Made by a program: the position numbers and the translations under genes. A model generated the notes under the pieces. The model was given only the letters and a program-made list of their open reading frames with translations, was not told the origin of the DNA and searched no databases. Positions 15,498-43,235 of a stretch of DNA of 49,001 nucleotides are shown here, one piece after another. The DNA is from Acidobacteriota bacterium (GTDB lineage Bacteria; Acidobacteriota; Thermoanaerobaculia; UBA5066; Gp7-AA6). The DNA lies in the NCBI GenBank assembly GCA_046735265.1, contig JBKPSZ010000011.1, positions 1 through 49,001 on the forward strand. The letters run 5' to 3'. Within the stretch, counting starts at the first letter, position 1. Each line of letters starts with the position of its first letter.

Positions 15498-18407
15498 ATG
15501 AGACTCGCCAGAGGGGTTCGGACGAGCGCCGGAATCGCGCTGGCAGGGCTGGTGCTCAGTGCTCTCGTGGTCGTCACCTACCGAAACGTCCGCGGCGTGA
15601 TCGAGGCCGGGCGCTGGGTCGAGCACACCCGCGACGTCATCGGGCAGCTCGACCAGCTGCGCGCGCTCTTGAAAGAGGCCGAGTCCGGCGCCCGCGCGTA
15701 CGTCCTGACGGGCCAGACGGACAGCCTCGAACCCTATCAAGAGGCCCTGATCGAGGCTCCGGCGTTCGGTGAACGCATCGAGTCGCTCGTTCGGGATAGC
15801 CCGGAACAACTCGCGCGGGCAAAAGACCTCCGTGTTCACCTCGCCGAGAGGCTCGATGCCCTGAAGCAGATCGTCGCGGCGCGCGACTCGGGAGGCCTCG
15901 AGGCCGGTGCCCGGTCGGTCGCCGAGGGGCGCGGAATGCGGGAGATGGAGGTCGTGGAGCAAGTCGCCGACGACATGGTGGCTGCCGAGCGCTCGCTCCT
16001 ATCGACGCGAACTGGAAACTTCGAGCGGGTGGCGCGGGAGGCGCTGATCGCGCTCGCGATCGGCGCCGTGCTCCTCTTCGTCTTCCTCGCGCTGATCGGA
16101 GCGCTCCTGCGGATGGATCTCCTGAAGCGGCACGAGGCGGAAGAACAGCTTCGCCTCTCCGAGGCCGAGATGCGCACGACGCTCCGCTCGATCGGCGACG
16201 GCGTGATCGCGACGGACACGTCGGGCCGGATCGTATTGATGAACACGGTGGCCGAGAACTTGACGGGCTGGCCGGAAGCCGAGGCGATCGGCCGCGCTGT
16301 CTCGGAAGTCTTCCGGGTCGCGAGCGAGACCACCGGGGAGCCGGTCGAGAACCCGATCACTCGGGTCCTCGCCGAAGGTCGAGCGGCCGGTCTCGCGAAC
16401 CAGACGGTCCTGATCCAGCGGACGGGAGAGCGCATCCCGATCGCCGACAGCGGCGCCCCCATCCAAAACGACTCGGGAGAGATCAAGGGCGCGGTCCTCG
16501 TCTTCCGCGACATCGCGGAGAAAAGGTCCGCCGAACGCGATTTGCAGCGGCTCGCGGCGATCGTTTCTTCCTCCGAGGACGCGATCGTGGGAGAGACGCT
16601 CGACGGCAAAATCACCGACTGGAACGCGGCCGCCGAGCGGCTCTTCGGCTATTCGAGCGCCGACGTGATGGGCAAGCACATCGGCCTGCTCGAGCCGCCC
16701 GAATTCGAGGAGTCGACCGGGGCCCGCCTCGGACGGATCCGTCGTGGCGAGCGCGTCCAGGTCTTCGACACGACGCGCGTCACGAAGGACGGCGGTCGCG
16801 TGCCGGTCTCGGTCTCGGTCTCGCCGATCCGGAATTTCGACGGCGCCGTCATCGGCGCTTCGAAGGTCGTCCGCGACATCACGGACCGCAAGAATGCCGA
16901 GATCGCCCTGCGCGCGAGCGAAGAGCGGTTCCGCGTCCTCTCCGACGCCGTCGCGGCTCTCGTCTGGGCCAGCGACGAGCGGGGCCGGTTGACGTACGTC
17001 AATCGGCCCTGGCGGGAATTCACCGGGCACGAGGAGGGGGGGACGCCCGACTCCTGGACCTCGATCGTCCATCCGGACGATCTGCCCGCCGCGCTCGCAA
17101 AGTGGCAAGTCTGCGTCGTGAACGGCGAGCCTTTCGTCGGCGACGTGCGCCTGCGGAGAAAGGATGGCGCCTACCGCTGGTTCGCGGCGCGGACCTCGCT
17201 CATTCCGAGCCGATCGGGCCCGATCTGGGTCGGCACGGCCGCCGACGTGGACGACTTGAAGACGGCCGCATCGGCGCTCCAAAAGGCCAAGGAGGCCGCC
17301 GAGGACGCGGCGCACGCGAAAGACCGCTTCCTGGCGGTGCTCTCGCACGAGCTTCGGACTCCTCTGACTCCCGCGCTCGTCGCGTCGCAGACCCTGGAGC
17401 GCCGTCGCGACCTGCCCGAAGACGCGCGCCAGTCCGCCTCGCTCATTCGCCGCAACGTCGAGCTCGAGGCCCTTCTCGTCGACGACCTCCTCGACCTGAC
17501 CAAGATCGCGCGCGGGATGGTCGAGATCCGGCGCCAAAGCGTGGACGTTCACGAGCTCGTCCGACAGGTCGCCGACATCTGCCGGAGCGACCTCCATGGC
17601 AGACGCCAGATTCTTTCGGTCGAGCTCGCCGCCGCCATTCATCACACCGAGGGGGATCCGGCGCGGCTCCAGCAGGTCTTCTGGAATCTCCTGAAGAACG
17701 CGATCAAGTTCACGCCGGTCGGCGGCTCGATCTCTCTGCGAAGCGAGAACCCACAGACGGAACGGATCCGCCTGTCGGTGAAGGACACCGGAATCGGGAT
17801 CCCCGCGGGGATTCTCCCGCGCATCTTCGATCCGTTCGAGCGGGGTCCCAAGACGATCAGCCCCCGGCTTTCGGGGCTCGGCCTCGGCCTCTCGATCTCG
17901 AGAACTCTGATCGAGCTCCACGGGGGGACGATCCGCGCCGAAAGCGACGGCGAGGGGAAAGGCTCCACGTTCTCCGTCGAGCTCGAGGCGTTCGTCGAGA
18001 AGGCGATCGCCCCGGCCGCTCGCCGAGACGACCAGCGGCGCGCCCGGAAGCTCGCGATCCTTCTGGTCGAGGATCACACCGACACCGCGGGAGCCTTGGC
18101 CGATCTCCTTCAGCAGGAAGGGCACACCGTCACGATCGCCGACTCGACGCAAGCCGCTTTGGAGGCGTTCCGCGCCAACTCCTACGACCTGCTCATCACC
18201 GACCTCGGGCTGCCTGACGGCAACGGGCACGAGCTGCTCGGACAGCTGCGCCGGATCCGTCCGGTCGAAGGGATCGTGCTCTCGGGATACGGGATGGACT
18301 CGGATGTCGCCAAGAGCCGCGCTGCCGGCTTCGCGCACCACCTGACGAAACCCGTTCAGATCGGCAAGCTGCTCAGTACGCTCGCCGAAATCGAAGTCTC
18401 GAACTGA
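15498..18407 (+). CDS. Hybrid sensor kinase CHASE3-PAS x3-HisKA-HATPase-REC
   Basis: WVEHT..V/AESGARAY (CHASE3), SHELRTPL, NLLKNAIKFT, DTGIG, GLGLGL, C-terminal REC LLVEDH..TDLGLPD. Confidence 0.93.
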   Translation: MRLARGVRTSAGIALAGLVLSALVVVTYRNVRGVIEAGRWVEHTRDVIGQLDQLRALLKEAESGARAYVLTGQTDSLEPYQEALIEAPAFGERIESLVRDSPEQLARAKDLRVHLAERLDALKQIVAARDSGGLEAGARSVAEGRGMREMEVVEQVADDMVAAERSLLSTRTGNFERVAREALIALAIGAVLLFVFLALIGALLRMDLLKRHEAEEQLRLSEAEMRTTLRSIGDGVIATDTSGRIVLMNTVAENLTGWPEAEAIGRAVSEVFRVASETTGEPVENPITRVLAEGRAAGLANQTVLIQRTGERIPIADSGAPIQNDSGEIKGAVLVFRDIAEKRSAERDLQRLAAIVSSSEDAIVGETLDGKITDWNAAAERLFGYSSADVMGKHIGLLEPPEFEESTGARLGRIRRGERVQVFDTTRVTKDGGRVPVSVSVSPIRNFDGAVIGASKVVRDITDRKNAEIALRASEERFRVLSDAVAALVWASDERGRLTYVNRPWREFTGHEEGGTPDSWTSIVHPDDLPAALAKWQVCVVNGEPFVGDVRLRRKDGAYRWFAARTSLIPSRSGPIWVGTAADVDDLKTAASALQKAKEAAEDAAHAKDRFLAVLSHELRTPLTPALVASQTLERRRDLPEDARQSASLIRRNVELEALLVDDLLDLTKIARGMVEIRRQSVDVHELVRQVADICRSDLHGRRQILSVELAAAIHHTEGDPARLQQVFWNLLKNAIKFTPVGGSISLRSENPQTERIRLSVKDTGIGIPAGILPRIFDPFERGPKTISPRLSGLGLGLSISRTLIELHGGTIRAESDGEGKGSTFSVELEAFVEKAIAPAARRDDQRRARKLAILLVEDHTDTAGALADLLQQEGHTVTIADSTQAALEAFRANSYDLLITDLGLPDGNGHELLGQLRRIRPVEGIVLSGYGMDSDVAKSRAAGFAHHLTKPVQIGKLLSTLAEIEVSN

Positions 18408-21000: not shown

Positions 21001-21016
21001 AGCAAGGCGGGTGCCA
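21001..21016 (-). promoter_or_regulatory. sigma-54 promoter (Omp85)
   Basis: TGGCACCCGCCTTGCT. Confidence 0.8.
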
Positions 21017-21028
21017 CCGCGCCGGGAA

Positions 21029-21044
21029 TGGAACGGAACTTGCT
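21029..21044 (+). promoter_or_regulatory. sigma-54 promoter (iron permease-like)
   Basis: TGGAACGGAACTTGCT. Confidence 0.75.
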
Positions 21045-23205: not shown

Positions 23206-25050
23206 TCATGCTTGCGGAGGGGGTCCCGAGTGGACCCCCCCACTCTTTCCATCCAGGGCTCGGCTGATGTTGACGGCCGCCGAAATCAGAGCGAGATGCG
23301 TGAAGGCCTGGGGAAAGTTCCCGAGGGCCTCGCCGGTCAGTCCAATCTCCTCGGCGTACAGGCCGAGATGGTTGGCATAGCCGAGCATCTTCTCGAAGGT
23401 CAATCTCGCCTCTTCGAGCCTTCCGGCGCGAGCCAGCGCCTCCGCCAGCCAGAATGTGCACATCGAGAAAGTCCCCTCCTCGCCTCCGATTCCGTCGGGG
23501 GCAATGCGATGGTCGTATCGGTAGACGAGGTGGTCGCTTACGAGGTTGTTCTGCATCGCGTCGAGCGTGCGCCGCATGCGCGGATCGGTCGGTGAAACGA
23601 ACTTGACCATCGGCGCGAGGAGCATGGCGGCGTCGAGATCCTCTCCGCCGATCGTCTGGACGAAGGAGTTGCGGTGCGGCGAGAAGCCCTGCGCCATGAT
23701 CATGTCGTAGATCGCGTCCCGGTTGGCGATCCACTTCGGCAAGTCCGCCGGCAGGCTGCGCTTGTCCGCCAGCCGCTGCGCCCGGTCGAGCGCGACCCAG
23801 CACATCAGCTTGGAAAAGGTGAACTGGTGACGTCCTCCGCGGACCTCCCAGATGCCCTCGTCCGGCTTGCGCCAGTGATCGCACACCCAATCGGCGAGCG
23901 CCCGCACGCCGACCCAGAGCCCGTGCGAAATCGGCTCGCCGTACTTGTTGTAGAGATAGACCGCGTCCATGACTTCGCCCGAGATGTCGAGTTGGAACTG
24001 ACGACTCGCGTCGTTTCCGACCCGCACCGGCCGGGAGCCGCGATAGCCGTCGAGGTGGTCGAGTGTCGACTCCGGCACGTCGGTCCTTCCGTCGATCCCG
24101 TAGAGCACCTGGAGGCCTCGCTCGGGATCGATCTCGCGGCACCGCGCCTCGAGGAAGTGCATGAAGCTCTCGGCTTCCTCCGTCAGCCCGACCCGGAGGA
24201 AGGCGTAGAGCGTGAAGGCCGCATCGCGCATCCAGGTGTAGCGATAGTCCCAGTTGCGGTTCCCGCCGACTCGCTCCGGAAGGCTCGACGTCGCGGCGGC
24301 GACGATCGCCCCGGTCCGGACGTACGTGAGGAGCTTCAGGGCGAGGCACGACCGCTTCACCATTTCGCGCCACCGCCCCTCGTACTGGCTGCGCGAGATC
24401 CACGATTGCCAGAAACGGAGCGTCGCGCGGAACTCCTCGTGGCATCGCTTCTGGAGGCCCTCGAGAGGAGGCGGAGGCTGGGAATCCGCCTGCGAAAGGA
24501 CGACCGGGATCTCGTCCCCCTCCTTCAAGAGGAAGGAGCCGACGACACCGCCGTCCCGCGGCTCGCAGGGCAGCGGCGTGACGAGATCGACCGCTCGCTT
24601 TCCGCCCGAGAAGCGAATGCCCGACGCCGTTCGCTCGCAGCGGGGGCCGGTGAGCGCGTAGTCGAACGCCGGCGTGCAGGAGAGCTCGAAGGGAAGGGAC
24701 CCGCGCACTCCGCGCACGATCCGGACGACCTGATGATCCTCGGGCTTCTTTCCTCCCCCGCTCACGTGAATCGGCATGAAGTCGACGACTTCTCCGACGC
24801 CGTCGGGGGTCAGGAAGCGCGTCAGGAGGACGTTCGAATCGGGAAGGTACATCTGACGCCGGCGCGCCTCCTCCGAGGTCGCCGCGATGCGAAAGAAGCC
24901 TCCCTTCTCGTCGTCGAGGATCGATGCGAAGAGCGAGGGAGAGTCGAAGTGCGGCAGGCAGAGCCAGTCAATCGAGCCGTCGATGCCGACGAGGGCCGCG
25001 GTGTGCAGGTCGCCGATGACCCCGTGATGTTCGATCGGCAGATAGCTCAT
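23206..25050 (-). CDS. Glycoside hydrolase family 15 (trehalase-like)
   Basis: IGDLHTAALV, TSSLPE..GG.RNWDYRYTWMRD, GNFPQAFTH. Confidence 0.93.
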   Translation of the reverse strand: MSYLPIEHHGVIGDLHTAALVGIDGSIDWLCLPHFDSPSLFASILDDEKGGFFRIAATSEEARRRQMYLPDSNVLLTRFLTPDGVGEVVDFMPIHVSGGGKKPEDHQVVRIVRGVRGSLPFELSCTPAFDYALTGPRCERTASGIRFSGGKRAVDLVTPLPCEPRDGGVVGSFLLKEGDEIPVVLSQADSQPPPPLEGLQKRCHEEFRATLRFWQSWISRSQYEGRWREMVKRSCLALKLLTYVRTGAIVAAATSSLPERVGGNRNWDYRYTWMRDAAFTLYAFLRVGLTEEAESFMHFLEARCREIDPERGLQVLYGIDGRTDVPESTLDHLDGYRGSRPVRVGNDASRQFQLDISGEVMDAVYLYNKYGEPISHGLWVGVRALADWVCDHWRKPDEGIWEVRGGRHQFTFSKLMCWVALDRAQRLADKRSLPADLPKWIANRDAIYDMIMAQGFSPHRNSFVQTIGGEDLDAAMLLAPMVKFVSPTDPRMRRTLDAMQNNLVSDHLVYRYDHRIAPDGIGGEEGTFSMCTFWLAEALARAGRLEEARLTFEKMLGYANHLGLYAEEIGLTGEALGNFPQAFTHLALISAAVNISRALDGKSGGVHSGPPPQA

Positions 25051-26513
25051 GAAGCGAGCGCCGCCGGCAGATAGTCCTCCGCGCGCGGGAATTCCGACAG
25101 ATCCCGCGAGATCGCCGCGCGGAGGTACGCGTCGAGCCAGTGGTAGATGTCGCGTTCGCGGACGATGCGCCGAAGGCGGCGCATCCGCTCCTTCTTTTCC
25201 GAGTCGGGCATCGTGAGAGCCCGCCGGAGAGTCTCCGCGACCCCTTCGACGTCGTACGGGTTGACGAGGAGGGCGCCGGTCTGTAGCTCCGCCGCCGCCC
25301 CGGCGAACTCCGACAGGACCAGGACGCCGTCATCGGCGAGCCGTGTGGCGCAATACTCCTTGGCGACGAGGTTCATGCCGTCCTTGAGCGGCGTGACGAG
25401 GGCGACGTCGGCCGCCAGATAGTACGCGGGCAGGCGCGGGCCCTCGAGGCTGCGATGGATGTAGTGGATCGGGACCCAGCCCGACCGCGTGAACTGGCCG
25501 TTGATTTCGCCGACGAGACCTTCGATCGCCGCTCGGTGCTCGCGGTACCCGGGGATGTCCTCGCGGCTGGGGACGGCCACCTGCACGAGCGTCACCTTTC
25601 CTCGCTGCTCCGGGTCCTTCTGAAGCATCCAGCGAAAGGCCTCGAGCTTCTGCGGAATTCCCTTCGTGTAATCGAGGCGGTCGATCCCGAGCACGATCTG
25701 CCTCGCGCCCTCGTCCTGCTTCAAGCTCTCCGTCTTCTCGATCACGTCGGCTCGCCGGGCGAGGCGCGAGAACGAGCGCGCGTCGATCGAGATCGGAAAG
25801 GTGCCGACGCGCACCTCGCGCCCTTCCCAGCGCACGCGCACCACCGCCCCTTTTCCGGTGATCGACGCTTCCGGCAGGAGCAACCGGGCGCACTGGAGAA
25901 AATTCCGCCGGTCGCGGATCGTCTGGAACCCGACCAGGTCGAACTCGAGGAGCGATCGCAGGATCGGAAAGCGCCAGGGCAGCTTCAGGAAGATGTCGAG
26001 CGGCGGAAAAGGGATGTGAAGGAAGAACGCGATTCGAGAGGAGACGCCCAGGCGGCGAAGCTCGCCCGCCATCCCCATCAAGTGGTAATCGTGCACCCAG
26101 ATGAAGTCTTCGGGCTGCGCGCCCGCGGCCGTCTCCTTTGCGAACTTCCGGTTGACCGCCTCGTAGGCTTGCCAATAGGAGGGATGGAAGCGACACATCG
26201 AGAGGAGGTCGTGGAAGAGAGGCCAGATCACCTCGTTCGAGAAGCCGTGGTAGAAGCCGTCGCGCTCCGCGGCCGTCAGCGACACGGGCACGAGCTCGTA
26301 GCCGAACCGCTCCGCCGACCGGGCGAGCACCGCTCGCGGATCCGCCAGCTCCTCTTCGACGACGCCGCTCCACCCGATCCAGCGGCCCCCGCGATTCTGC
26401 AGCACGGGCCGCAGCGCCGTCACGAGGCCGCCGCTGCCCGGCTCGATCCGCCAGTCCGCCCCTTCGCGGGCGAGGGTGAAGGGGAGACGGTTGGAGACGA
26501 CGACGAGTCTCAT
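25047..26513 (-). CDS. otsA: Trehalose-6-phosphate synthase
   Basis: [47 protein letters not shown]. Confidence 0.95.
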
Positions 26514-27394
26514 GCCGCTCCCCCGTTCGCGCCGGCGGGGAGTCGCGCCTCGGCCCGAGCGGCGCGCTCCCATCGCGTGAGGAAGCCGATCAAGTCCTCC
26601 GGAGGCCGCAGCCACAGGTCCGCCTCCGTCGGCCGCCGCCGGTCGCGAACGAGAACGCGCAACCCGTGGCCGCGCAGCGCGAGGAAGGCGTCTTCGTCCG
26701 TTCGGTCGTCGCCGAGATAAGCGACGGAGGCGCCGGGCGGAAGCTCGGCGAGCACCGATTCGACGACCCGCCCCTTGCTCGACCCTGCGGGACGGAACTC
26801 GAGCCCGCCGTCGAAGGGGAGCGCCACGAGTCCCCGTCGGTCGAGCGAGGACCGCCACCACTCGACGAGTGCCGTGCGCGCCTCGGGAAATCGCTCCGGA
26901 TCGGCGCGCTCGTGGAGGGCGAAACCGAACGGCTTTCTCTCGAAGAGATCCAGCCACCCTCGCTCCTCGATCCACTGGCCGATTCGATCGAGAAGGTCCG
27001 TGAGCGGCAGCGGAATCGGAGGGGCTGAGAGCGAACCGTCCGCCGCTCGGCGCTCGAGGCCGTGGGACCCCCACAGATCCGCCCTCGGAACGATCCAGTC
27101 GGTGCGGGCCTCGAGGTCGGCGAGCGCCCGCCCGCTTGCGACGACGAGCCGCGTGCCGCCGGCTTCGAGAATGCGCTGGATCGCCTCGGGAACCCCCGGG
27201 TGCGGGAGCGCGAGCTCGCGCCCTCCGCGGAAAGGCGCGAGCGTGCCGTCGTAGTCGACCATCAGGACGCGCGCCGGCGCTTCGCGGAGCGCCGCGAAGA
27301 AGACGTCGAGGAGGGCGCGCGTGGAACTGCGTCGCTCGCGGGGCCGCCGCGCGGACGTGGAACGAGATTCTCCTGAAGAGGAGCGAATCGCCAT
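26510..27394 (-). CDS. otsB: Trehalose-6-phosphate phosphatase (HAD)
   Basis: DYDGTLAP, SGR, GSHGLE, KG, GDDRTDEDAF. Confidence 0.92.
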   Translation of the reverse strand: MAIRSSSGESRSTSARRPRERRSSTRALLDVFFAALREAPARVLMVDYDGTLAPFRGGRELALPHPGVPEAIQRILEAGGTRLVVASGRALADLEARTDWIVPRADLWGSHGLERRAADGSLSAPPIPLPLTDLLDRIGQWIEERGWLDLFERKPFGFALHERADPERFPEARTALVEWWRSSLDRRGLVALPFDGGLEFRPAGSSKGRVVESVLAELPPGASVAYLGDDRTDEDAFLALRGHGLRVLVRDRRRPTEADLWLRPPEDLIGFLTRWERAARAEARLPAGANGGAA

Positions 27395-27409
27395 TTCCAG
27401 AGCTCGAGG

Positions 27410-27425
27410 TGCGAAAACCGTGCCG
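27410..27425 (-). promoter_or_regulatory. sigma-54 promoter (otsBA-GH15)
   Basis: CGGCACGGTTTTCGCA. Confidence 0.7.
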
Positions 27426-27446
27426 GATTTCGCGAGGTCGGAGCGG

Positions 27447-27462
27447 TGGCAGGCGAATTGCT
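27447..27462 (+). promoter_or_regulatory. sigma-54 promoter (metallothionein-PRC)
   Basis: TGGCAGGCGAATTGCT. Confidence 0.75.
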
Positions 27463-27487
27463 TCGAATCTCGGCGGAGGAGTTCACC

Positions 27488-27640
27488 ATGACGTGCCAAC
27501 ACCGCGGATGTGGTTGTCAGGAAACCACCGTCGAACTCGAAGGAAGGAAGTTCTGCAGCGAGGCATGCGCCGACATGGAGACGACGGGACGCCACGGCGC
27601 GCACTGTCCGTGCGGACACGCCGACTGCGCCGCCGTCTGA
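27488..27640 (+). CDS. SmtA-like bacterial metallothionein
   Basis: CQHRGCGC...FCSEAC...CPCGHADC in 50 aa; GGAGGAG RBS. Confidence 0.82.
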   Translation: MTCQHRGCGCQETTVELEGRKFCSEACADMETTGRHGAHCPCGHADCAAV

Positions 27641-27718
27641 TCCTTCGAGTTTCGAGGCAAGCGATTTCGCGACGGACGGAGGGTCCGCCCGTCGAAATAC
27701 CAACCAAGGAGGAAAGGA

Positions 27719-28084
27719 ATGGCCAAGGTTCTGGATCAGCCGAGAGTGCTCTCCGCGTCGACGTTGAAGGGAGACCCGGTCCGCAATGCCGCCGGGGAGG
27801 ATCTCGGAAATATCGAAGAGTTCATGATCGACCTCGAGACGGGGAGGGTCGCGTACGCCGTCCTCTCGTTCGGCGGATTCCTCGGCATGGGCAACAAGCT
27901 GTTCGCCCTGCCCTGGGAGGCGCTCCGGCTCGACACCGACAGGCACGAGTTCGTCTTGAATGTCGACAAGGAAGTCTTGAAGAAGGCTCCCGGCTTCGAC
28001 AAGGACAACTGGCCGGATTTCGCCGACCGGTCCTGGGGAGCCGGCATCTACCGCTACTACGGCCACCGGCCGTACTGGGAGTAG
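27719..28084 (+). CDS. PRC-barrel domain protein
   Basis: GEDLGNIEEFMID..GRVAYAVLSFGGFLGMG.KLFALPW. Confidence 0.92.
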   Translation: MAKVLDQPRVLSASTLKGDPVRNAAGEDLGNIEEFMIDLETGRVAYAVLSFGGFLGMGNKLFALPWEALRLDTDRHEFVLNVDKEVLKKAPGFDKDNWPDFADRSWGAGIYRYYGHRPYWE

Positions 28085-28094
28085 ATCCTCGCCC

Positions 28095-28162
28095 CGCCTC
28101 TCCGGCGGAACCTCGCCGGGCTCCGTTCGCTCGGCGCGTCTCCGCCGGAGAGGCGCCCTTTT
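28095..28162 (+). terminator. Long hairpin, probable terminator
   Basis: 15-bp arms CGCCTCTCCGGCGGA/TCCGCCGGAGAGGCG, inner stem, then CCCTTTT. Confidence 0.55.
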
Positions 28163-28183
28163 CGTCCGGATCGGAGGCGACTC

Positions 28184-29038
28184 ATGGCTCGTGGTTCTTC
28201 GGCGAGGCCGCTGTGGAGTGGCCAGATCTCGTTCGGCCTGGTCTCGATTCCCGTCGGGCTCTACAGCGCGGTCGAATCTTCGGAGCGGATTTCCTTCCAC
28301 TTTCTGCACCGCAAAGACATGGCGCCGATCCGCTACAAGAAATTCTGCAGCCGCGAGGACGTCGAAGTCTCCAACGACGAAATCGTGAAGGGACGAAAGA
28401 CCGGCAACCGCTGGACGGTCGTCGAAAAGAAGGAGCTCGAGAAGGCGGCCGCGGAGGCCACGCCCGGAGAGGAGCGCGACGCGATCGAGGTCCTCCAGTT
28501 CGTTCCGCCCGAGTCGATCGATCCCCTCTCGATCGACCAGCCCTACTACGTCGCGCCCCGCAAAGGGGGCGAAAAGGCGTATGCGGTTCTCCGCGAGGCG
28601 CTGGCCGATCGCAAGCGCGCCGGTATCGTGCGGCTGGCGCTGCGCGAGCGGCCGCATCTGGGAGCGCTCTTGCCTTCCGCCCGGGCCCTCACGCTCGTGA
28701 CGCTTCGTCCCTTCGAGGAGATGCGCAATCCGGGTCGGTTGCCGCTGCCCTCCGACGGCAAGCGGCCCGCGGAGGTCAAGCTCGCCGAAATGCTGGTGGA
28801 CCGGCTCTCCGAAGACGGGTGGGATCCCGCGGCGCACCCCGACCGGTACCGCAAGGCCCTCGAAAAACTTCTCGCGTCGAAGAAGCCCAAGGCGGCGGCC
28901 GCCGGAGGCACCGCGGCGCCCGAACAAGAAGGCGGCGAAGTCGTGGACCTCATGGAGGCGCTTCGACGGAGTGTCGGGCGGGGCGCCCGCCGCGAACCGG
29001 TGCGGCGCTCGAAAGCCCGGCGGGCCGGCGCGGCGTAA
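28184..29038 (+). CDS. ku: NHEJ Ku protein
   Basis: WSGQISFGLVSIPV, PIRY, IVKG, YYVAP, VVDLMEALRRS, basic tail. Confidence 0.93.
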   Translation: MARGSSARPLWSGQISFGLVSIPVGLYSAVESSERISFHFLHRKDMAPIRYKKFCSREDVEVSNDEIVKGRKTGNRWTVVEKKELEKAAAEATPGEERDAIEVLQFVPPESIDPLSIDQPYYVAPRKGGEKAYAVLREALADRKRAGIVRLALRERPHLGALLPSARALTLVTLRPFEEMRNPGRLPLPSDGKRPAEVKLAEMLVDRLSEDGWDPAAHPDRYRKALEKLLASKKPKAAAAGGTAAPEQEGGEVVDLMEALRRSVGRGARREPVRRSKARRAGAA

Positions 29039-29131
29039 GCGGCGCGCGTTCCCATTCGCTCCGAAAAAGAATCGGCCAGGCCCTGGAGACCTGGCCGATC
29101 CTCCGACGCGAACTTTGGATCGCGGTGATTT

Positions 29132-29281
29132 CTACGTGACCGAGCGCCCCTGGATCAACCGGATCAGCAGGATCACGACCGCGGCGACGAGCAGGATGTG
29201 GATGAAGCCCGAGATCGTGTATCCCGACACGACGCCGAGGAGCCACAGTACGAGCAGGATCACGAATATGGTCCAGAGCAT
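29132..29281 (-). CDS. lmo0937/DUF5670-family small membrane protein
   Basis: MLWTIFVILLVLWLLGVVSGYTISGFIHILLV (manual translation, 49 aa); AAGGAG RBS. Confidence 0.88.
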   Translation of the reverse strand: MLWTIFVILLVLWLLGVVSGYTISGFIHILLVAAVVILLIRLIQGRSVT

Positions 29282-29344
29282 TTTTCGTCACTCCTTCCTA
29301 GTTCCAGGCGGCCGTCGAGGGCCCCTCCTGTGCGGATGGTAAGG

Positions 29345-29360
29345 AGCGAAAAGCGTGCCA
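29345..29360 (-). promoter_or_regulatory. sigma-54 promoter
   Basis: TGGCACGCTTTTCGCT. Confidence 0.75.
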
Positions 29361-29382
29361 GCCGGGGACCCGAAGCGAAGGA

Positions 29383-30687
29383 TCAGCGGCGGAGACGCGC
29401 CCTCTCGCCCGAGGCGCGCGACGTCTTGCGCGGCGGGGAGGCCTTCGCGCGCGCGGGTTTCTTGACGTCACCGGAAGAGGCTCGCTTCGTCGGCTCGCAC
29501 TCCTCGCCGAGTTTTTCGGGCAGCAGCGTCCGGACCGTGGCCGCCGGAATCGTGCCTTTCTCCGTGAGGATGTACGAGCGGTGCACCATGTTCCGGAGCT
29601 CCCTCACGTTGCCGGGCCAGGTGTGCTTCTGAAGAAGGTCGAGCGCCGTGGGCTCGAAGGATTCGACCCCGGCCTTCTCCTGGGCTTCGATCTCACGCCG
29701 GAAATGCTCGGCCAAGACCGGGATGTCTTCCTTGCGGTCCTTGAGCGAAGGGAGGCAGAGCGGGAAGACGTTCAGCCGGTAATAGAGGTCCTCGCGGATC
29801 TTCCCCTTCTCGAGCGCGTCCTTCGGGTCCCGGTTGGTGGCCGAGAGCAGACGCACGTCCACCTTCAGCTCTTGAGTCCCGCCGACGCGTCGGATCGTGC
29901 GCTCCTCCAGCACGCGAAGGAGCCGCACCTGCAGCTCGGCGCTCATCTCCGTGATCTCGTCCAAAAAGAGCGTCCCGCCGTTGGCCTCTTCGAAGTAGCC
30001 GACGCGCCGGCGGTCCGCGCCCGTGAACGACCCGCGCTCGTGCCCGAAGAGCTCGCTCTCGATCAGAGTCGGGGAAACCGCTCCGCAGTTGAAGGCCACG
30101 AACGGCTTTCCGGCCCGACGCGAGAGGCGGTGGATCGTGCGCGCCGCGACCTCCTTGCCGCTCCCGGACGGCCCCGAGATCAGGACCGGCGCCAGAGTCC
30201 GTGCGACCTTTCGGATCTCCTCGAACACCCGACGGATCGCCTCGGAGCGCCCCACCATCTCCCCGAGACGCCCCGTCTCCTGGAGCTCGGTTCTCAGTGT
30301 GTCGAGCTCGCTTTCGAGCCGACGGCGCTCGGCGACCCTCTGAAAGACCGCCTCGAGCTGAGCGGGCCGGAGCGGTTTCAAGAGGTAGTCCGTTGCGCCG
30401 GCGCGAAGCGCTTCGATGGCGTGGTCGATGGCGCTCGAGCCGGTGATGACGACGGCGTCGAGGTCCGGCTGGGTCTGCTTCGCCTCCCGGAGGATTTCCA
30501 ACCCGTCCCCGTCGGGCAGCGCGATGTCGACCACCAGCAGGTGCGGCTGAAAGTCTCGAACGGCGTCGGAAGCTTGGCGCGCCGTTCCGACCGCGAGCGT
30601 CTCGCCTCCGATGCCGCCGAGCTCGGAGATTGCCTCCTCGAGCCCGCGTCGGGTCGAGACGTCGTCCTCGACGATCAGAGTCTTCAA
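29383..30687 (-). CDS. sigma-54 activator (REC-AAA+), lacking C-terminal HTH
   Basis: REC (VEDD, VDIALPD, KP); GPSGSGKE, ELFGHERGSFTGA, LFLDEI, REDLYYRL, WPGNVREL; basic low-complexity tail. Confidence 0.93.
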   Translation of the reverse strand: MKTLIVEDDVSTRRGLEEAISELGGIGGETLAVGTARQASDAVRDFQPHLLVVDIALPDGDGLEILREAKQTQPDLDAVVITGSSAIDHAIEALRAGATDYLLKPLRPAQLEAVFQRVAERRRLESELDTLRTELQETGRLGEMVGRSEAIRRVFEEIRKVARTLAPVLISGPSGSGKEVAARTIHRLSRRAGKPFVAFNCGAVSPTLIESELFGHERGSFTGADRRRVGYFEEANGGTLFLDEITEMSAELQVRLLRVLEERTIRRVGGTQELKVDVRLLSATNRDPKDALEKGKIREDLYYRLNVFPLCLPSLKDRKEDIPVLAEHFRREIEAQEKAGVESFEPTALDLLQKHTWPGNVRELRNMVHRSYILTEKGTIPAATVRTLLPEKLGEECEPTKRASSGDVKKPARAKASPPRKTSRASGERARLRR

Positions 30688-30938
30688 GCGGTTCGGCCCT
30701 TCTCCGGCGTTTGCATTTCGAGCGCGTCCTGGCGTCCCCTCTCGAACAGCTCGAAAGCCCGCGAGAGCTCGCGGCGGGCCGTCGCGAGCGCGATGGAAGG
30801 ATCGTCTCCCCGCTCCGCCCGGCGGCTGGCCGTTTCCAGATGCAGCGAAACCGCCGAGAGCGGCGTCGATACGTCGTGCAGGAAACGCCGCAACCAGGCG
30901 CGGTCGAGGACGTTCCCGCGATTCGGTTCCGAGCTCAT
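30684..30938 (-). CDS. Stand-alone HisKA/DHp-like protein (putative phosphotransferase)
   Basis: H-box-like FLHDVSTPLSAVSL, 84 aa, no ATPase domain; TTGA overlap with the activator. Confidence 0.7.
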   Translation of the reverse strand: MSSEPNRGNVLDRAWLRRFLHDVSTPLSAVSLHLETASRRAERGDDPSIALATARRELSRAFELFERGRQDALEMQTPEKGRTA

Positions 30939-30984
30939 CTCGATAAATCCTATGTCAGGGGTCTCTGTCTCGGAGAAAGCCGCT

Positions 30985-31018
30985 AAAAACAGGCGCCCCC
31001 GCGCAAACGGGGGCGCCT
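30985..31018 (-). terminator. Intrinsic terminator
   Basis: AGGCGCCCCC/GGGGGCGCCT hairpin plus GTTTTT on minus. Confidence 0.8.
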
Positions 31019-31040
31019 TCGAAGGGGATCGATTCGAGGC

Positions 31041-31691
31041 TTACGCCTTCGAGGCGTAGTGCGCGATCACGGTCACCTTGTCTCCGTTGTCCCCCTTCCG
31101 GTAGGTCACCTTGACCCGGTCACCCACCGCGACGGGACGAAGGATGGAGGCGTTCTCGTCCAGATCGAACGTGAAGTCCTTGTCTCCCGGTCCGGTCACG
31201 ACGATCTTCTTGCCGGGCTCGTACTTCTTGATCGTTCCGACGACCGTCTCCGTCTTCACCTTCGTGTCGGGCGCGTTCGGCACCTTGTTCTTCACCGTCT
31301 CTTCCGTGTGAGAGCGAGGCATGGCCGCCGCGTTCGGCATGGCGCCCGGTCCGGACGCCTCGGACAGGACGGAGACGCGCTCGTGTCCGTCGTTGTCCTT
31401 CCAGTACTGGACCTTGGCCTTCTGACCCACGGCGATCGCGCCGGTCACCTTGGCGTTCTCGTCGAGGTCGAAGGTATAGGTCTTGTCGTTGGGGCCGGAG
31501 ATCTTGATCTTCTTACCGGCCTCGTACTCCTTCACCGTCCCGACGACCGATTCCATCTTGGTCTTCGTGTCGGGGCCGGGTCCGGAGTGCTTCACGGTCG
31601 TCTCCGTGTGCGTCTTCGTCTGCGGCTCCTGGGCGAGCGCCAGGCTTCCGGCCGCGAGACAGACTCCGACCAAAACCAGAGCTCGTTTCAT
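31041..31691 (-). CDS. Secreted protein with two tandem beta-rich repeats
   Basis: Signal peptide; duplicated VVGT.K.YE.GKKI...GP.DK..TFDLDENA. Confidence 0.85.
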   Translation of the reverse strand: MKRALVLVGVCLAAGSLALAQEPQTKTHTETTVKHSGPGPDTKTKMESVVGTVKEYEAGKKIKISGPNDKTYTFDLDENAKVTGAIAVGQKAKVQYWKDNDGHERVSVLSEASGPGAMPNAAAMPRSHTEETVKNKVPNAPDTKVKTETVVGTIKKYEPGKKIVVTGPGDKDFTFDLDENASILRPVAVGDRVKVTYRKGDNGDKVTVIAHYASKA

Positions 31692-31738
31692 AGTCGTTCT
31701 CCTTTCAACGGCCTCGCGAGAGGCCATTGAAGGAGTTA

Positions 31739-31754
31739 TTCAAGAGTCGTGCCG
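31739..31754 (-). promoter_or_regulatory. sigma-54-like promoter (variant -12)
   Basis: CGGCACGACTCTTGAA. Confidence 0.5.
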
Positions 31755-33920
31755 GAATCGTTCGGCGTCGGTCGAGACGACGACTTCGACTCCTTCGGCC
31801 GGGCGACTCGTCGACACGCCGACTTCCTCTCCGCGCGTTTCCACGTGCACGTCGAGGGTGCCTGTCGCCCCGCGCAGGTTCTGAAGCCGGATGTCGCGGA
31901 GAAACGGAGGCAGCTTCGGGCTCTCGAACCGAAACCGGCGGCCGCCTGCGTCGATCGACAGACCGAGACAGCACTGCAGAAGCAGGAACACGGCGCCCGC
32001 CGACCACGACTGCGGCGCGCAGGCCAGCGGATAGAGCGTCGGAGGCTCGCCTTCGTGCCGCTCGAAGCCGCAGAAGAGCTCCGGCAGTCTGCGCAGCTCC
32101 ATCTGGCGGCTGACGTCGAGCATCGCGACGAGCAGGCGCATGGCGAGGTCCTGCCGCCCGTACGCCGCAAGCCCGGCGGCGGCGAGCGCGTTGTCGTGGG
32201 GCCAGATCGAGCCGTTGTGGTACGACATCGGGTTGAAGCGCGCCTGCCCGCGCGCGATCGTTCGAATTCCCCAGCCCGAGAACCCGTCGTCGGAAAAGAG
32301 GGTGCGAGCGACCGACTCCGCGCGCTCGGGCAGCGCGATGCCGGTCCAGAGCGCGTGCGCGGCGCTCGAGCACGCGACGCGACAGGGACGTTTTTCCCCG
32401 TCGAGCGCCATGGCGTAGCTCGAAAGCTCCTCGCACCAGTAGGCCTCGTCGAAGGCGCGGCGCATCCGATCTCCCGCGCTGCGGAGCGTCTCCGCGCGCC
32501 CGCGATGTCCGAGAGCTTCGGTCAGCCGCGCCGCTCCGAGGCGCGCTGCGTAGACGTAGCCCTGAACTTCGGCGAGCGCGATGGGGCCGTCGGCGAGCCG
32601 GCCGTCGGCGTGGAAGACCGCGTCCTGGGAGTCCCGCCAACCCTGTTGAACGAGACCCCTCGGCGACTGCCGGTGATATTCGACGAATCCGTCACCGTCC
32701 CGGTCGCCCCACGAATCGATCCAGTCGAGCGCCGCCTCGACGTGAGGCCAGAGCGTCTCGAGGAAAGCGTCGTCGCCGGTGCGTTCGTGGTAGGCCGCGG
32801 CGAGCATGACGAAGAGAGGCGTCGCGTCGACGCTGCCGTAGTACCGCCCGAAAGGGACCTCGCCGAGCGCGGCCATTTCCCCCTTGCGCGCCTCGTGGAG
32901 GATCTTCCCGGGCTCGGCGTCGTGCTCGGGGTCGAGCTCGCGCGCCTGCGTCTCGGAGAGGTAGGAGAGCACGCCCTTCGCGAGCGACGGATCGAGCCAG
33001 AGCGTCTCCAGGGCCGTCACGATCCCGTCGCGTCCGAACGGAGTGCAGAACCAGGGCACCCCGGCGAACGGGTAGGGGCCGGACGGAAGGGCCGTCGTCA
33101 TCATCTCCAGGTCCGCCGCCGAGCGCCGCAGCCACGCTCCGAAGGCCTCGTGCGGACAGGCGACCGTGGCCTTCTCGGCGGCGGCCGACTCCGCGCGGGC
33201 CGCCGACGGCAGCCGCGGCGTTGGCCGATCCTCCCCCGAGCTCTGGCAGTAGATCGTCTGGAGAAGCCGTCGCTTTTCTCCGGGCTCCAGGCGCAGCGAG
33301 AAGACGACTCCGCCCGGGCGCACTTCGCCCGGCTGAGGATCGCAGTAGAGGTGCGTCTCGCGGACGACGCCGTCCCGGCCCGCATAGGACATCCGGACGC
33401 CGCGTTCCTCCGGGATGGCCGGAAGGCGGCGCCCCTTCTTTTCGCGAGAGGTTCCGCGCACTTCGAAGACGTCCGCAAAGTCCGCGTCCACCGCGACCGA
33501 CATGCGCACGCTCGTCGGCTCGAGCCCGTAGTTGCGCAACGAGATCGCCTGAGAGAATCCGCCCGGGAACGTCCAGACTTCCCGCACGAGGTGGACGGTC
33601 CCGCGCGGGACCGCCATGTGGCCGTCGCGATAGACGTCGGCGTTCGTCAGGTGCGCGACGAAAGAACCGCTGTCGTCCCGCAGGCCGGAGCTCAAGAGCA
33701 GCGGCCGCTGCCCTTCCAGGGTCAGCGCGAGCCGGGAAAGAAAGCGCGTCCCCTCGTGATAGAGGCCGAGCTCGGGCAGTCCGACGGAAGCGATGTCGCC
33801 CAGCCGGTCGCAGATGGCGAACGTCTCGCCCCGCTTGAGCACCCGGGTTCGGCCATCGAGCCTCGACGAGGTCGCCCGGATGTAGAACTGATTGTCGATT
33901 TCGATGACGTCTTCGTCCAA
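31740..33920 (-). CDS. Amylo-alpha-1,6-glucosidase / glycogen-debranching family
   Basis: AGVPWFCTPFGRD, AEPGKILHE, YYGSVDATPLF, QGWRDS, YHNGSIWPHDN, PELFCG. Confidence 0.92.
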   Translation of the reverse strand: MDEDVIEIDNQFYIRATSSRLDGRTRVLKRGETFAICDRLGDIASVGLPELGLYHEGTRFLSRLALTLEGQRPLLLSSGLRDDSGSFVAHLTNADVYRDGHMAVPRGTVHLVREVWTFPGGFSQAISLRNYGLEPTSVRMSVAVDADFADVFEVRGTSREKKGRRLPAIPEERGVRMSYAGRDGVVRETHLYCDPQPGEVRPGGVVFSLRLEPGEKRRLLQTIYCQSSGEDRPTPRLPSAARAESAAAEKATVACPHEAFGAWLRRSAADLEMMTTALPSGPYPFAGVPWFCTPFGRDGIVTALETLWLDPSLAKGVLSYLSETQARELDPEHDAEPGKILHEARKGEMAALGEVPFGRYYGSVDATPLFVMLAAAYHERTGDDAFLETLWPHVEAALDWIDSWGDRDGDGFVEYHRQSPRGLVQQGWRDSQDAVFHADGRLADGPIALAEVQGYVYAARLGAARLTEALGHRGRAETLRSAGDRMRRAFDEAYWCEELSSYAMALDGEKRPCRVACSSAAHALWTGIALPERAESVARTLFSDDGFSGWGIRTIARGQARFNPMSYHNGSIWPHDNALAAAGLAAYGRQDLAMRLLVAMLDVSRQMELRRLPELFCGFERHEGEPPTLYPLACAPQSWSAGAVFLLLQCCLGLSIDAGGRRFRFESPKLPPFLRDIRLQNLRGATGTLDVHVETRGEEVGVSTSRPAEGVEVVVSTDAERFRHDS

Positions 33921-33945
33921 GACGGCACCTTACGGGCGAAGCCGG

Positions 33946-35043
33946 TCAGACGCTCGCATCCGGCGCCCGAACCTCGGGCGCCGCCCGCAGCGCGGGGCGT
34001 CGCGCGAACGGCACCACCCGGTGAGAGGCGACCTCGCGGTAGATCGCCTCGTAGTCCTCCGCCATCCGCTCCGCGGTGAACCGCCGCTCGAAAGCCTCGC
34101 GGCAGCGGAATCGGTCGATCCGCTCGATGCGGTGAACCGCGTCGACCGCGCCGTCGATGTCCGACACGATGAAACCGGTCTCCCCTGGCTCGACGACCTC
34201 GTCGACGGACCCGCCCGGGAAGGCGATGACCGGCGTTCCGCAGGCGAGCGCCTCGATCATGACGAGGCCGAACGGCTCCGGCCAGTCGATCGGGAAGAGC
34301 AGTGCCGCCGCGTGCCCGAGGAATTCGTTCTTCTCCTCCTCTCCGATCTCGCCGAGAAAGGTCACGTGGGGGTCGGACAGGAGCGGCACGATCTGCCGCT
34401 CGAAATATTCGGTGTCCGCGCGGTCCACCTTCGCCGCGATCCGAAGCCGCCGGCCCGAGCGCCGGGCGATCTCGATCGCGCGGTCGACGCGCTTCTCCGG
34501 GGAAATGCGGCCGAGGAACGCGAGGTAGCCGCCGGCGCCCTTTCGGAACTCGTAGAGGTTCTCCGGCAGCCCGTGGGGGACCGTGGCCCGCCACGATGCG
34601 TTCGGAAGCTGATGGCGCTGCGCCCGGGAGATCGACACGAGCGGCATGTCGGAATACTCCCGATACAGCGGCTCCAGATCCGGCAGGTCCATGCGCCCGT
34701 GGAGCGTCGTCACCTGCGGCACGGCGGTGCGGCGCGAGAACGGAAAGTGCAGATAGTCCACGTGGAAGTGGATCACGTCGAACCGGCGGGCTTCCGCGAA
34801 AACCTGTTCGAGAAGGAGCAGATGCCGCGCGATCGGATCGTGGCACTCCGGGTCGAGACGCAGCGCGCGGCGCGCGGTCGGAACGAGGCGGGCCGACGTG
34901 CGCGAGTCGCCGCTCGCGAAAAGAGTCACGTCGTGCCCGAGGCGCACGAGCTCTTCGGTGAGATAGGAGACCACCCTCTCCGTGCCGCCGTAGCGCGCGG
35001 GAGGGACACTTTCGTAAAGCGGGGCGACCTGTGCAATCTTCAT
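33946..35043 (-). CDS. GT4 glycosyltransferase
   Basis: VPPARYGGTERVV, GRISPEK, WPEPFGLVMIEALACGTPV. Confidence 0.93.
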   Translation of the reverse strand: MKIAQVAPLYESVPPARYGGTERVVSYLTEELVRLGHDVTLFASGDSRTSARLVPTARRALRLDPECHDPIARHLLLLEQVFAEARRFDVIHFHVDYLHFPFSRRTAVPQVTTLHGRMDLPDLEPLYREYSDMPLVSISRAQRHQLPNASWRATVPHGLPENLYEFRKGAGGYLAFLGRISPEKRVDRAIEIARRSGRRLRIAAKVDRADTEYFERQIVPLLSDPHVTFLGEIGEEEKNEFLGHAAALLFPIDWPEPFGLVMIEALACGTPVIAFPGGSVDEVVEPGETGFIVSDIDGAVDAVHRIERIDRFRCREAFERRFTAERMAEDYEAIYREVASHRVVPFARRPALRAAPEVRAPDASV

Positions 35044-35057
35044 CACTTCTCCAGAGA

Positions 35058-35073
35058 AGCAGATTTCGTGCCT
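35058..35073 (-). promoter_or_regulatory. sigma-54 promoter (GT4 operon)
   Basis: AGGCACGAAATCTGCT. Confidence 0.7.
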
Positions 35074-35119
35074 CCTCGCGCAAGGCGTGGAGACTCGGAT
35101 CGAATCGTCGAGAACGTTG

Positions 35120-35389
35120 CTACCGGCCGGCCCGGGCCCGACCGATTCCATAGGTCGGCGCCGGCGGAACCGCTTCCGGCGGGGAGGGGAAACGCTTCAC
35201 CGACGCGACCGATCCGCGCGGGCCCTTCCCTCCGTCGCCTTCTTCCGAGGCGCCGGTCCGGACGAAGAGAACAGAAAGCAGCGCGGCGGAACAGGCGAGG
35301 ACGATGTAAAGCGAACCCGAAATCGCGTAGAACAACGCCACACCGACGATCAGAACGAGCAGTGCGGCGAGGATCAGCTGACGAAACAT
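35120..35389 (-). CDS. Small 2-TM hypothetical protein
   Basis: MFRQLILAALLVLIVGVALFY... Confidence 0.6.
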   Translation of the reverse strand: MFRQLILAALLVLIVGVALFYAISGSLYIVLACSAALLSVLFVRTGASEEGDGGKGPRGSVASVKRFPSPPEAVPPAPTYGIGRARAGR

Positions 35390-35434: not shown

Positions 35435-35450
35435 AGCAATCCGCCTGCCA
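35435..35450 (-). promoter_or_regulatory. sigma-54 promoter
   Basis: TGGCAGGCGGATTGCT. Confidence 0.75.
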
Positions 35451-37754: not shown

Positions 37755-37770
37755 AGCAAGGTCCGTACCA
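37755..37770 (-). promoter_or_regulatory. sigma-54 promoter
   Basis: TGGTACGGACCTTGCT. Confidence 0.78.
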
Positions 37771-43219: not shown

Positions 43220-43235
43220 TGGCACGCATCCTGCT
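43220..43235 (+). promoter_or_regulatory. sigma-54 promoter
   Basis: TGGCACGCATCCTGCT. Confidence 0.78.

Follow-up and report, generated by a model that had tools for sequence, protein, structure and literature searches.

What is left for a protein in the position of a histidine kinase to do when it has kept the phospho-accepting hairpin and nothing else? The question is raised by a locus in the genome of an Acidobacteriota bacterium (GTDB lineage Thermoanaerobaculia; UBA5066; Gp7-AA6; assembly GCA_046735265.1), where the gene for an isolated dimerization and histidine phosphotransfer (DHp) domain of 84 amino acids (aa) overlaps the gene for a sigma-54 activator. The window is the whole stretch of DNA analyzed, 49,001 nucleotides (nt) from contig JBKPSZ010000011.1, and feature positions are counted from its first letter. 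Judged by comparison with its relatives, the 84-aa protein is a truncated derivative of a kinase-like protein that joined a DHp domain to a catalytic and ATP-binding (CA) domain. We put at about even the chance that it acts as His2, the histidine carrier between a hybrid-kinase receiver and a terminal receiver, in a relay leading to the activator. The pair and the signals around it are as follows.

30684..30938, (-) strand: DHp-only protein, 84 aa; H21 is the candidate phospho-acceptor, D22 the acidic residue at H+1 and T25 the residue at H+4
29383..30687, (-) strand: sigma-54 activator, 434 aa; receiver (REC), AAA+ sigma-54 interaction domain and lid, no helix-turn-helix (HTH), basic tail
30948..30951, (-) strand: AGGA, a Shine-Dalgarno-like element read from the sequence, 9 nt 5' of the DHp ATG
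30991..31018, (-) strand: terminator-like hairpin with 12 pairs (10 G-C) and GTTTTT 3' of it, separating a 228-aa gene from the DHp gene

Anatomy of the DHp gene

The ATG of the DHp gene is the sole start in its open frame, with no in-frame ATG, GTG or TTG farther upstream; the protein begins MSSEPNRGN..., and G+C content at third codon positions is 0.80, the same as in neighboring genes. The H-box, FLHDVSTPL, holds the histidine, the acidic residue at H+1, threonine at H+4 and proline at H+5 (H21-D22-V-S-T25-P26-L27). The Pfam HisKA model (PF00512) matches residues 20-66 over profile positions 10-55, below its gathering score (20.2 vs 26.9 bits, E 6e-4); a relative that has both domains, P0129, is also below it at 23.4 bits. 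Pfam finds no HATPase_c domain in the open reading frame (ORF), which stops 63 residues past the histidine. The Hpt family (PF01627) gives no match at E<=1, and the predicted model has two helices only.

The AlphaFold2 model, built from a 71-row alignment, is a helical hairpin (helices 7-42 and 48-76, mean pLDDT 86.3), and the protein terminates 10-15 residues past helix 2. Foldseek comparison of this model to the PDB returns nothing at E<=0.001 (best E 1.2); DHp chains of kinases are mixed there with unrelated hairpins, a bare hairpin being too simple a shape to inform. Frame, Pfam and AlphaFold2 together bear out the first-pass annotation, which had described an H-box in an ORF of two-helix size, with neither sensor nor ATPase domain and with a stop overlapping the activator start.

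Coupling to a sigma-54 activator

Homologs of the 84-aa protein come in two forms, a short form like that in the window and a long form that carries the CA domain as well. We inspected 22 short and 12 long loci; lengths were measured in 21 of the short ones (the window and L038-L057). An orthologous activator (62-83% identity) directly follows the DHp gene in all 34. At the window locus the TGA of the DHp gene (30686-30684) overlaps the TTG start of the activator (30687-30685), and the same 4-base stop-start overlap recurs at 10 of the 21 measured short-form loci and at 10 of the 12 long-form ones. Across the 21 short loci the gap from DHp stop to activator start is -4 in 10, +3 to +18 in 6 and +79 to +95 in 5, so there is no room for a hidden CA remnant. 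(In the last group, the g3 short loci L042, L043, L045, L046 and L048, a spacer of 79-95 nt replaces the overlap.) The idea that the DHp ORF is an artefact of a mis-called activator start was rejected, as 33 orthologous activators share the start M-K/R-x-L-I-V-E-D-D.

Because the hairpin at 31018-30991 separates the upstream 228-aa gene, the DHp and activator genes look like a two-gene unit of their own. A scan of 29000-32000 for sigma-70 promoters gave no match. Four contig sets from soil metatranscriptomes, compared to 29383-31727, contained no contig covering the DHp ORF; matches were confined to short stretches of conserved AAA+ sequence belonging to other organisms and to exact fragments of the 228-aa gene.

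The activator matches Response_reg (73.5 bits), Sigma54_activat (234 bits) and AAA_lid_14, and no HTH family, HTH_8 included, is among its Pfam matches. From its sequence, the partner of the DHp protein appears to be a sigma-54 bacterial enhancer-binding protein with no DNA-binding domain. The same holds for all activators of the window's family, designated f1 (window, L038-L069 and L077), which are 402-434 aa long and end in a basic, low-complexity tail rich in Lys, Arg, Pro and Ala in place of a Fis-type HTH. The orthologs in two outgroups, f2 and f3 (L072, L074, L075 and L076), are 456-488 aa long and, by eye, have a Fis-type HTH-like C-terminus, which suggests that the DNA-binding domain was lost in f1 before the CA domain was. 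All 35 of 35 receiver sequences have D8, D9, D54, T82 and K104, those with long and those with short partners alike. The activator should therefore still be a phospho-acceptor, and requires a donor. The earlier description of a stand-alone DHp protein coupled to the activator thus holds, in the form of translational coupling to a phosphorylatable sigma-54 activator.

The short form as a conserved family

A gene this small could be a non-functional remnant of a kinase gene whose frame happens still to be open. Two observations lend themselves to that explanation, the full DHp+CA gene found at the same position in sister genera and the sub-threshold Pfam score, but the distribution of the short form and the constraint upon it make it very improbable indeed. 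In a word-indexed search among proteins of 56-147 aa, 69 of 70 candidates match at E<=0.01, nearly all of them 70-95 aa long, and those with a named source belong to metagenome-assembled genomes of Thermoanaerobaculia or Acidobacteriota. Searched exhaustively with HMMER, a representative library (50% clustering) yields 36 representatives at E<=0.001. A class-wide sample of 401 genomes includes 57 from f1. Of these, 54 match the short-form profile at more than 90 bits, as does the window's own genome, and the three f1 genomes with no match to this profile are each 89% complete. Outside f1 the profile finds no high scores in the class, only weaker kinase-like relatives in f2 and f3. The short form itself is kept in 29 sampled f1 genomes belonging to three genera, g1 (the window's genus), g3 and g7.

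Among 71 aligned short forms E35, A54, L58 and R69 are invariant and about 20 more positions are at least 90% conserved; 26 positions of the alignment are nearly invariant. The median ratio of nonsynonymous to synonymous substitution (dN/dS) is 0.27 (Nei-Gojobori, 58-codon core, 20 short loci, for the 124 of 190 pairs with 0.05<dS<1.5), and close pairs of short loci give 0.01-0.38. Length is constant as well, running 54-65 residues past the histidine in 21 of 21 loci measured, and the stop-start overlap with the activator is preserved. By these sequence measures the 84-aa gene is not an ORF open by chance, and it is not decaying; it is a truncated derivative of a kinase, stable and under selection. 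Synteny and length conservation had been proposed beforehand as checks on the homologs, and both turned out in favor of a real family.

Origin from a two-domain protein

With the 84-aa protein as query against longer proteins, 154 of 464 candidates match at E<=0.01, typically at 215-235 aa, and among the 120 longer matches listed most carry PF02518 (HATPase_c), with 56-76% identity over the DHp domain. The homology of the 84-aa protein with DHp+CA proteins is close (60-75% identity over the DHp domain, E about 1e-17). Used as a query, the long form finds a match at E<=1e-8 in 56 of the 57 f1 genomes. The match is full-length in 26 genomes of the genera g2, g4, g5, g6 and g8 (E 1e-60 to 1e-138), and covers the DHp domain only in the 29 genomes of g1, g3 and g7. 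The long forms are sensor-less DHp+CA proteins of about 215 aa that occupy the same position upstream of the same activator and end 193-203 residues past the histidine.

Outgroup f3 also encodes a DHp+CA protein of about 215 aa directly 5' of an activator ortholog (59% identity), and a related arrangement occurs in f2, so the two-domain form is ancestral. In a maximum-likelihood tree of the activators rooted on the f2 and f3 outgroups, the long forms make up one clade (SH-aLRT 95); g1+g7, g3 and the long clade form a three-way split, compatible with one CA loss or with two. The first-pass annotation had reckoned that full-length kinases among the homologs would mark this gene as a fragment. 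Sister genera do have a DHp+CA protein of about 215 aa at the locus, and yet the short form is not a recent fragment.

The CA domain of the long forms is strongly conserved, with the N-box Asn in 117 of 117 and a G2-like "GK.WGMGL" motif; in the f2 relative, by eye, the N-box Asn and the G2 box are missing. In alignment with DivL, the place of its G1-box Asp is taken by Asn in 116 of the 117 (e.g. P0129 160-167; L058 5001-5672 (-)) and by Ser in f3. In GHKL ATPases the G1-box Asp, as far as is known otherwise universal, binds adenine N6. The replacement of this Asp, together with the lack of a sensor, hints, short of a finding, that the family may never have been an ordinary ATP-dependent autokinase. 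The long-form CA domain possibly holds a non-ATP or non-catalytic nucleotide pocket. A fold search with the long-form model (pLDDT 86.2) ranks ordinary kinase cores first (HK853, DivL), with the ChpT chains 4fmt and 4fpp at ranks 40-41, and a sequence search of the PDB with the long form gives DivL (4q20, E 2.6e-8) as the sole match.

Loss of the CA domain from the protein could have been made good in trans. His21 would then be phosphorylated with ATP by the CA domain of another kinase or by a stand-alone ATPase, and would pass the phosphoryl group to the activator. Conservation of the histidine and of the H+1 Asp fits such a split kinase. Domains A and B of EnvZ reportedly reconstitute kinase activity in trans, and the Mycobacterium tuberculosis system Rv0600c/Rv0601c/TcrA is said to be a split kinase made of a His-only and an ATP-binding-only protein. 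A review speaks of that M. tuberculosis system as "two SKs and one RR" (PMC3544749). The window's own genome (G000, 94% complete in 362 contigs) has no CA domain of the family's type elsewhere, the best others belonging to ordinary kinases at 26-35% identity. Its two small HATPase ORFs read as RsbW/SpoIIAB-like and are unlinked to the pair, and no CA-only gene stands beside the pair in any of the 22 short loci. We regard a split kinase as improbable. With no CA domain in the ORF and no orthologous one in the genome as sequenced, the 84-aa protein appears to have no route to autophosphorylation.

The histidine and its neighbors

The first-pass annotation had singled out conservation of the histidine as a test, and the residue is kept in 22 of 22 activator-coupled short loci. 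It is present in 65 of 71 short proteins, metagenomic and genomic, and in 117 of 117 long forms. The acidic residue at H+1 (D/E) is kept in 68 of 71 short forms. The residue at H+4 behaves differently: 116 of 117 long forms have T there, and the 71 short forms divide into 32 with T, 32 with A and 7 with another residue. In the window's own genus, four of five loci have alanine at H+4; T is retained by the window's protein and at all 16 g3 loci.

These positions bear on the main rival to the relay, in which the DHp dimer is a dedicated phosphatase or phosphate sink that dephosphorylates an activator phosphorylated by another kinase or by acetyl phosphate, the loss of the CA domain having left a bifunctional kinase with its "off" half only. 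EnvZ reportedly dephosphorylates OmpR~P through its DHp domain even when that domain is isolated. A phosphatase role has been raised for "HisKA, no HATPase" proteins in a census (PMC5847659), and the H+4 Thr kept in the window's protein and in all the g3 copies is what such a role would require. According to Willett and Kirby (PMC3510030), the acidic residue beside the histidine in HisKA proteins is needed for kinase and not for phosphatase activity, and the Thr or Asn at H+4 is needed for phosphatase and not for kinase activity. A family reduced to phosphatases should show the opposite of the pattern seen, in which the H+4 Thr has given way to Ala in many short forms while the histidine and acidic H+1, dispensable for a phosphatase, stay conserved in the coupled copies. 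After CA loss, to go by the alignment, constraint on the phosphatase-specific residue seems to have lapsed in roughly half the lineages but to have persisted on those of phospho-histidine chemistry. A relaxed H+4 beside a retained histidine and H+1 argues against a phosphatase-only role for the family, and we rate that role as unlikely.

The histidine might also be irrelevant, and the protein a phosphorylation-independent anti-activator or adaptor, comparable to NifL acting on NifA, that binds the AAA+ domain or the receiver. Six of the 71 short proteins have no histidine and keep the helix-2 residues E35, A54, L58 and R69, and NifL-NifA gives a precedent for a kinase-like anti-activator of a sigma-54 activator (PMC12998190). 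One of the six, P0210, traces to a metagenome locus (L070), and a further variant with Arg, resembling the His-less P0199, is a second copy in genome G284 (L078), which also holds a normal, coupled, His-bearing copy. At L070 (3001-3291 (+)) and L078 (4040-4366 (-)) Lys or Arg stands for the histidine and no activator follows; in these two cases, loss of the histidine goes with loss of activator coupling. (The six His-less proteins, when aligned, share no stretch conserved well enough to serve as a scanning pattern; a search for the loci of two close His-less variants found none in genome contigs and one in metagenome contigs.) The absence of an activator beside the two His-less loci examined, the histidine of every coupled short locus and the invariant phospho-acceptor residues of the receiver all speak against a partner that works without phosphorylation, which has in our estimate only a small chance of being right. 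The His-less paralogs at L070 and L078 keep the helix-2 motif E..F..FERGR.

Candidate phosphodonors

If His21 is a relay histidine, the phosphoryl group has to come from a receiver, and the window encodes a candidate source.

15498..18407, (+) strand: hybrid histidine kinase, CHASE3-PAS x3-HisKA-HATPase_c-REC, no Hpt; candidate phosphodonor

Full-length orthologs of this kinase lie 4.6-12 kb from the DHp gene in all five other short-form genomes tested (four g1, one g3). Long-form genomes do not have the ortholog; the five tested all have two other hybrid kinases directly upstream, divergently oriented, with the architectures GAF-HisKA-HATPase-REC-REC and REC...HisKA-HATPase-REC. A match was counted as a hybrid kinase if it spanned 80% or more of a query made of kinase core plus receiver and lay within 5 kb of the pair on either side. 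All 12 long loci have two each; at least one is present at 12 of 22 short loci, one at each of the two f3 loci and none at the f2 locus. In all, three different types of hybrid kinase adjoin the pair across the loci. A dedicated phosphatase would leave the activator with no identified donor even though hybrid kinases adjoin it.

These kinases have few conventional relay partners. The window's own genome contains a single Hpt domain, located within an HK-REC-Hpt frame (G000 C286 4797-6311 (+)), and five near-complete relatives (G068, G120, G036, G056, G024) have zero or one each, always inside a large frame. The same genome has at least five hybrid kinases that lack Hpt, recognized as HATPase_c and receiver matches in a common open frame. 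A relay from Hpt-less hybrid kinases requires a His2 carrier, and the 84-aa protein is the obvious candidate.

The relay drawn in the first-pass annotation ran from the kinase at 15498-18407 through this histidine to the activator Asp. That kinase does lack Hpt and its linkage to the pair is conserved; its service as the donor we infer. The annotation had also thought of a second kinase, at 45816, which the sequence does not confirm: the ORF has no kinase domain in view, and any kinase part would lie outside the window.

45816-49001, (+) strand: CheB methylesterase-CheR methyltransferase-PAS-PAS ORF, running past the contig end

Predicted complex with the activator receiver

Two chains of the 84-aa protein were co-folded with residues 1-122 of the activator, its receiver. 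The ipSAE values are 0.65, 0.63 and 0.65, vs 0.01 in the best of three controls; in the calibration, 58 of 80 solved complexes and 2 of 110 mismatched pairs attained this mark. At least 84% of contacts are common to the runs, and partner pLDDT is at least 85. The two DHp copies are predicted to pack together, each touching the receiver. One chain would contribute residues 17, 20-21 (the histidine included), 24-33, 35-36 and 39, and the other residues 59, 62, 65-66 and 69; on the receiver side the predicted contacts are alpha1 (9-22), residue 56 beside Asp54 and the beta4-alpha4 and beta5-alpha5 loops. The model places His21 at the receiver active site in a canonical interface. Co-folding with the activator REC had been suggested earlier as a check. 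The predicted canonical receiver interface counts in favor of the dedicated phosphatase too.

The proposed relay

In the mechanism we favor, the 84-aa protein would be a homodimeric, DHp-only histidine phosphotransfer protein serving as His2 in a four-step relay. An Hpt-less hybrid kinase, for which 15498-18407 is the candidate in the window, would autophosphorylate and move the phosphoryl group to the Asp of its own C-terminal receiver. That receiver would dock on helix 1 of the DHp dimer and phosphorylate His21, after which the receiver of the co-translated activator would dock on the same DHp surface and take the phosphoryl group to Asp54, switching on the AAA+ domain. Reverse flow is compatible with this model, so that the activator could be drained while the kinases are off. 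The arrangement would have originated when a DHp+CA ancestor of about 215 aa, without a sensor and already placed between hybrid kinases and the activator, cleanly lost its CA domain.

Several points weigh against this relay. Phosphotransfer and the identity of the donor kinase are both read from sequence and a structural model. The HisKA score of the protein falls under the Pfam threshold. Ten of the 22 short loci have no hybrid kinase within 5 kb, and the nearest one in the window is 12 kb away; where linkage does exist it is inherited, so the loci are not independent counts. A shared docking surface might leave a trace in the receivers; among the 44 of 49 own-genome receivers that were ranked, none exceeds 34% identity to that of the activator, so this comparison yields no lead; the receiver of the window's hybrid kinase is at 26%. 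The co-fold concerns a textbook pair with solved kinase-regulator complexes, and its pass may reflect likeness to these (HK853-RR468) only. The argument from H+4 is not decisive for the window's protein and the g3 copies, which keep the Thr. Finally, the conserved CA domain and kinase-like model of the long form mean that the ancestor may have been a true kinase and the short form merely a deactivated one.

Comparison with known systems

The nearest functional parallels to the proposed relay protein are ChpT of Caulobacter and Spo0B of Bacillus. ChpT acts in transfer as a dimer, each chain pairing a DHp hairpin with an atypical domain of the Bergerat fold; it binds neither ATP nor ADP and cannot autophosphorylate. 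The bundle of Spo0B is likewise made of two hairpins (PMC3433190), and Spo0B does not autophosphorylate with ATP either. Both proteins share with the 84-aa protein a hairpin dimerizing to a four-helix bundle with a shuttling histidine (in our case the hairpin is predicted, the dimer and the shuttling are proposed) and a place between an upstream kinase or relay receiver and a terminal regulator (a proposed role here, in a similar hybrid-kinase context). They differ in keeping a C-terminal CA-like alpha/beta domain, of which the 84-aa protein has none, and in serving a DNA-binding regulator, where the receiving regulator here is a sigma-54 AAA+ activator. No sequence link to ChpT or Spo0B was detected in the PDB sequence search, which was made with the long form only. 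On balance, and with moderate confidence, we would file the 84-aa protein as a minimal DHp-type transferase, one that departs from the two-domain architecture of ChpT and Spo0B.

The direct ancestors are represented by the DHp+CA proteins of sister genera (about 215-235 aa, e.g. P0129), which share the H-box, the position, the 4-base overlap and the hybrid-kinase neighborhood, and differ in the conserved CA domain, the Asn in place of the G1 Asp and the near-invariant H+4 Thr. FlgS/FlgR of Helicobacter and CtcB/CtcC of Chlamydia pair a soluble kinase that has a functional CA domain with a sigma-54 activator that has no DNA-binding domain. Both resemble the present pair in their REC-AAA+ activator without HTH and in a cytoplasmic, sensor-poor upstream protein, whose CA domain is gone here. 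Hpt proteins (PF01627; ArcB-C, Ypd1) do the His2 job proposed here, between hybrid-kinase receiver and terminal receiver. They are monomeric four-helix bundles of a different family, and they are nearly absent from these genomes.

"HisKA, no HATPase" is a recognized census category, for which phosphoacceptor, phosphotransfer or phosphatase roles have been suggested (PMC5847659; bioRxiv 10.64898/2026.02.27.708494). Its members, also termed "possible incomplete histidine kinases" (P2CS; archaeal census PMC5847659), have a conserved histidine and no ATPase domain, as does the 84-aa protein. Those described carry N-terminal PAS, GAF or other sensors, unlike the bare two-helix protein found here, which in addition has a traceable DHp+CA ancestor and translational coupling to its regulator. 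C-terminal receivers of hybrid kinases are for their part regarded as phosphoryl shuttles between DHp domains (PMC9981736). Neither a bare DHp transferase nor the present family turned up in the literature searched, a partial collection without subscription journals.

Neighborhood and putative sigma-54 regulon

Upstream of the hairpin lies a gene whose product recurs with the short form.

31041..31727, (-) strand: 228-aa two-repeat protein, two similar halves, N-terminal hydrophobic segment, no significant Pfam match

Many g1 and g3 loci have this gene upstream of their short form; around long-form loci no copy was seen out to 5 kb. From such evidence the protein is best taken as context of the DHp pair, a candidate member of the system at most. 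Contigs matching it exactly occur in three soil metatranscriptome runs.

The window as a whole contains 30 matches to the sigma-54-type pattern TGGCAC-N5-TTGCW with up to two mismatches, vs 6.9 +- 2.7 in shuffled sequences, and none of 100 shuffles reaches 30. Examples are 21001-21016 (-), 21029-21044 (+), 35435-35450 (-), 37755-37770 (-) and 43220-43235 (+). Several lie 13-64 nt 5' of ORF starts in the correct orientation, a placement suggestive of leaders that are short or missing and of a sigma-54 regulon in this region. One is close to the pair itself.

29345..29360, (-) strand: sigma-54-type -24/-12 motif with one mismatch, 64 nt 5' of the DUF5670 gene 29132-29281; possible target of the activator

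Around the pair are genes of stress and desiccation type (23206-29281, 31740-35151 and 43264-43887). They encode a GT20 trehalose-phosphate-synthase-like (OtsA-like) protein, a GH15 trehalase-like protein, Ku, a PRC barrel protein, the DUF5670 small membrane protein, a DUF892/rubrerythrin-like protein, a glycogen-debranching (GDE)/mannosylglycerate-hydrolase (MGH)-like hydrolase and a GT4 glycosyltransferase. It is plausible, given these motifs, that the activator acts from solution on the sigma-54-type promoters of the window. Lacking a DNA-binding domain, it would act in this way on many such promoters of stress and desiccation genes.

Implications

Dimeric DHp-type phosphotransferases are few (Spo0B, ChpT), and both keep a degenerate ATPase-like domain of unclear purpose. 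The lineage described here has a conserved version from which the second domain has been removed, while sister genera keep that domain in the gene at this position, next to the same activator and to hybrid kinases of a similar kind. If the relay is real, the sister genera and the short form make up a natural before-and-after pair, and the CA-like domain of transferases of the ChpT/Spo0B type would be dispensable. Two questions are thereby opened: what the second domain contributes in specificity, directionality or regulation, and whether a bare DHp domain suffices for a relay. We suggest, tentatively, that a bare DHp dimer of about 80 aa is here the smallest natural His-Asp relay protein, feeding signals from several Hpt-less kinases to a DNA-binding-domain-less activator of a desiccation and stress regulon.

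For annotation, the case bears on "HisKA without HATPase" genes, which are usually labeled hypothetical or mis-labeled as kinases. In genomes with many hybrid kinases and almost no Hpt, such proteins could supply the missing relay step. For the organism itself, an activator without a DNA-binding domain and a local excess of sigma-54-type promoters near trehalose, Ku and ferritin-like genes point to a possible stress regulon of soil bacteria that merits mapping.

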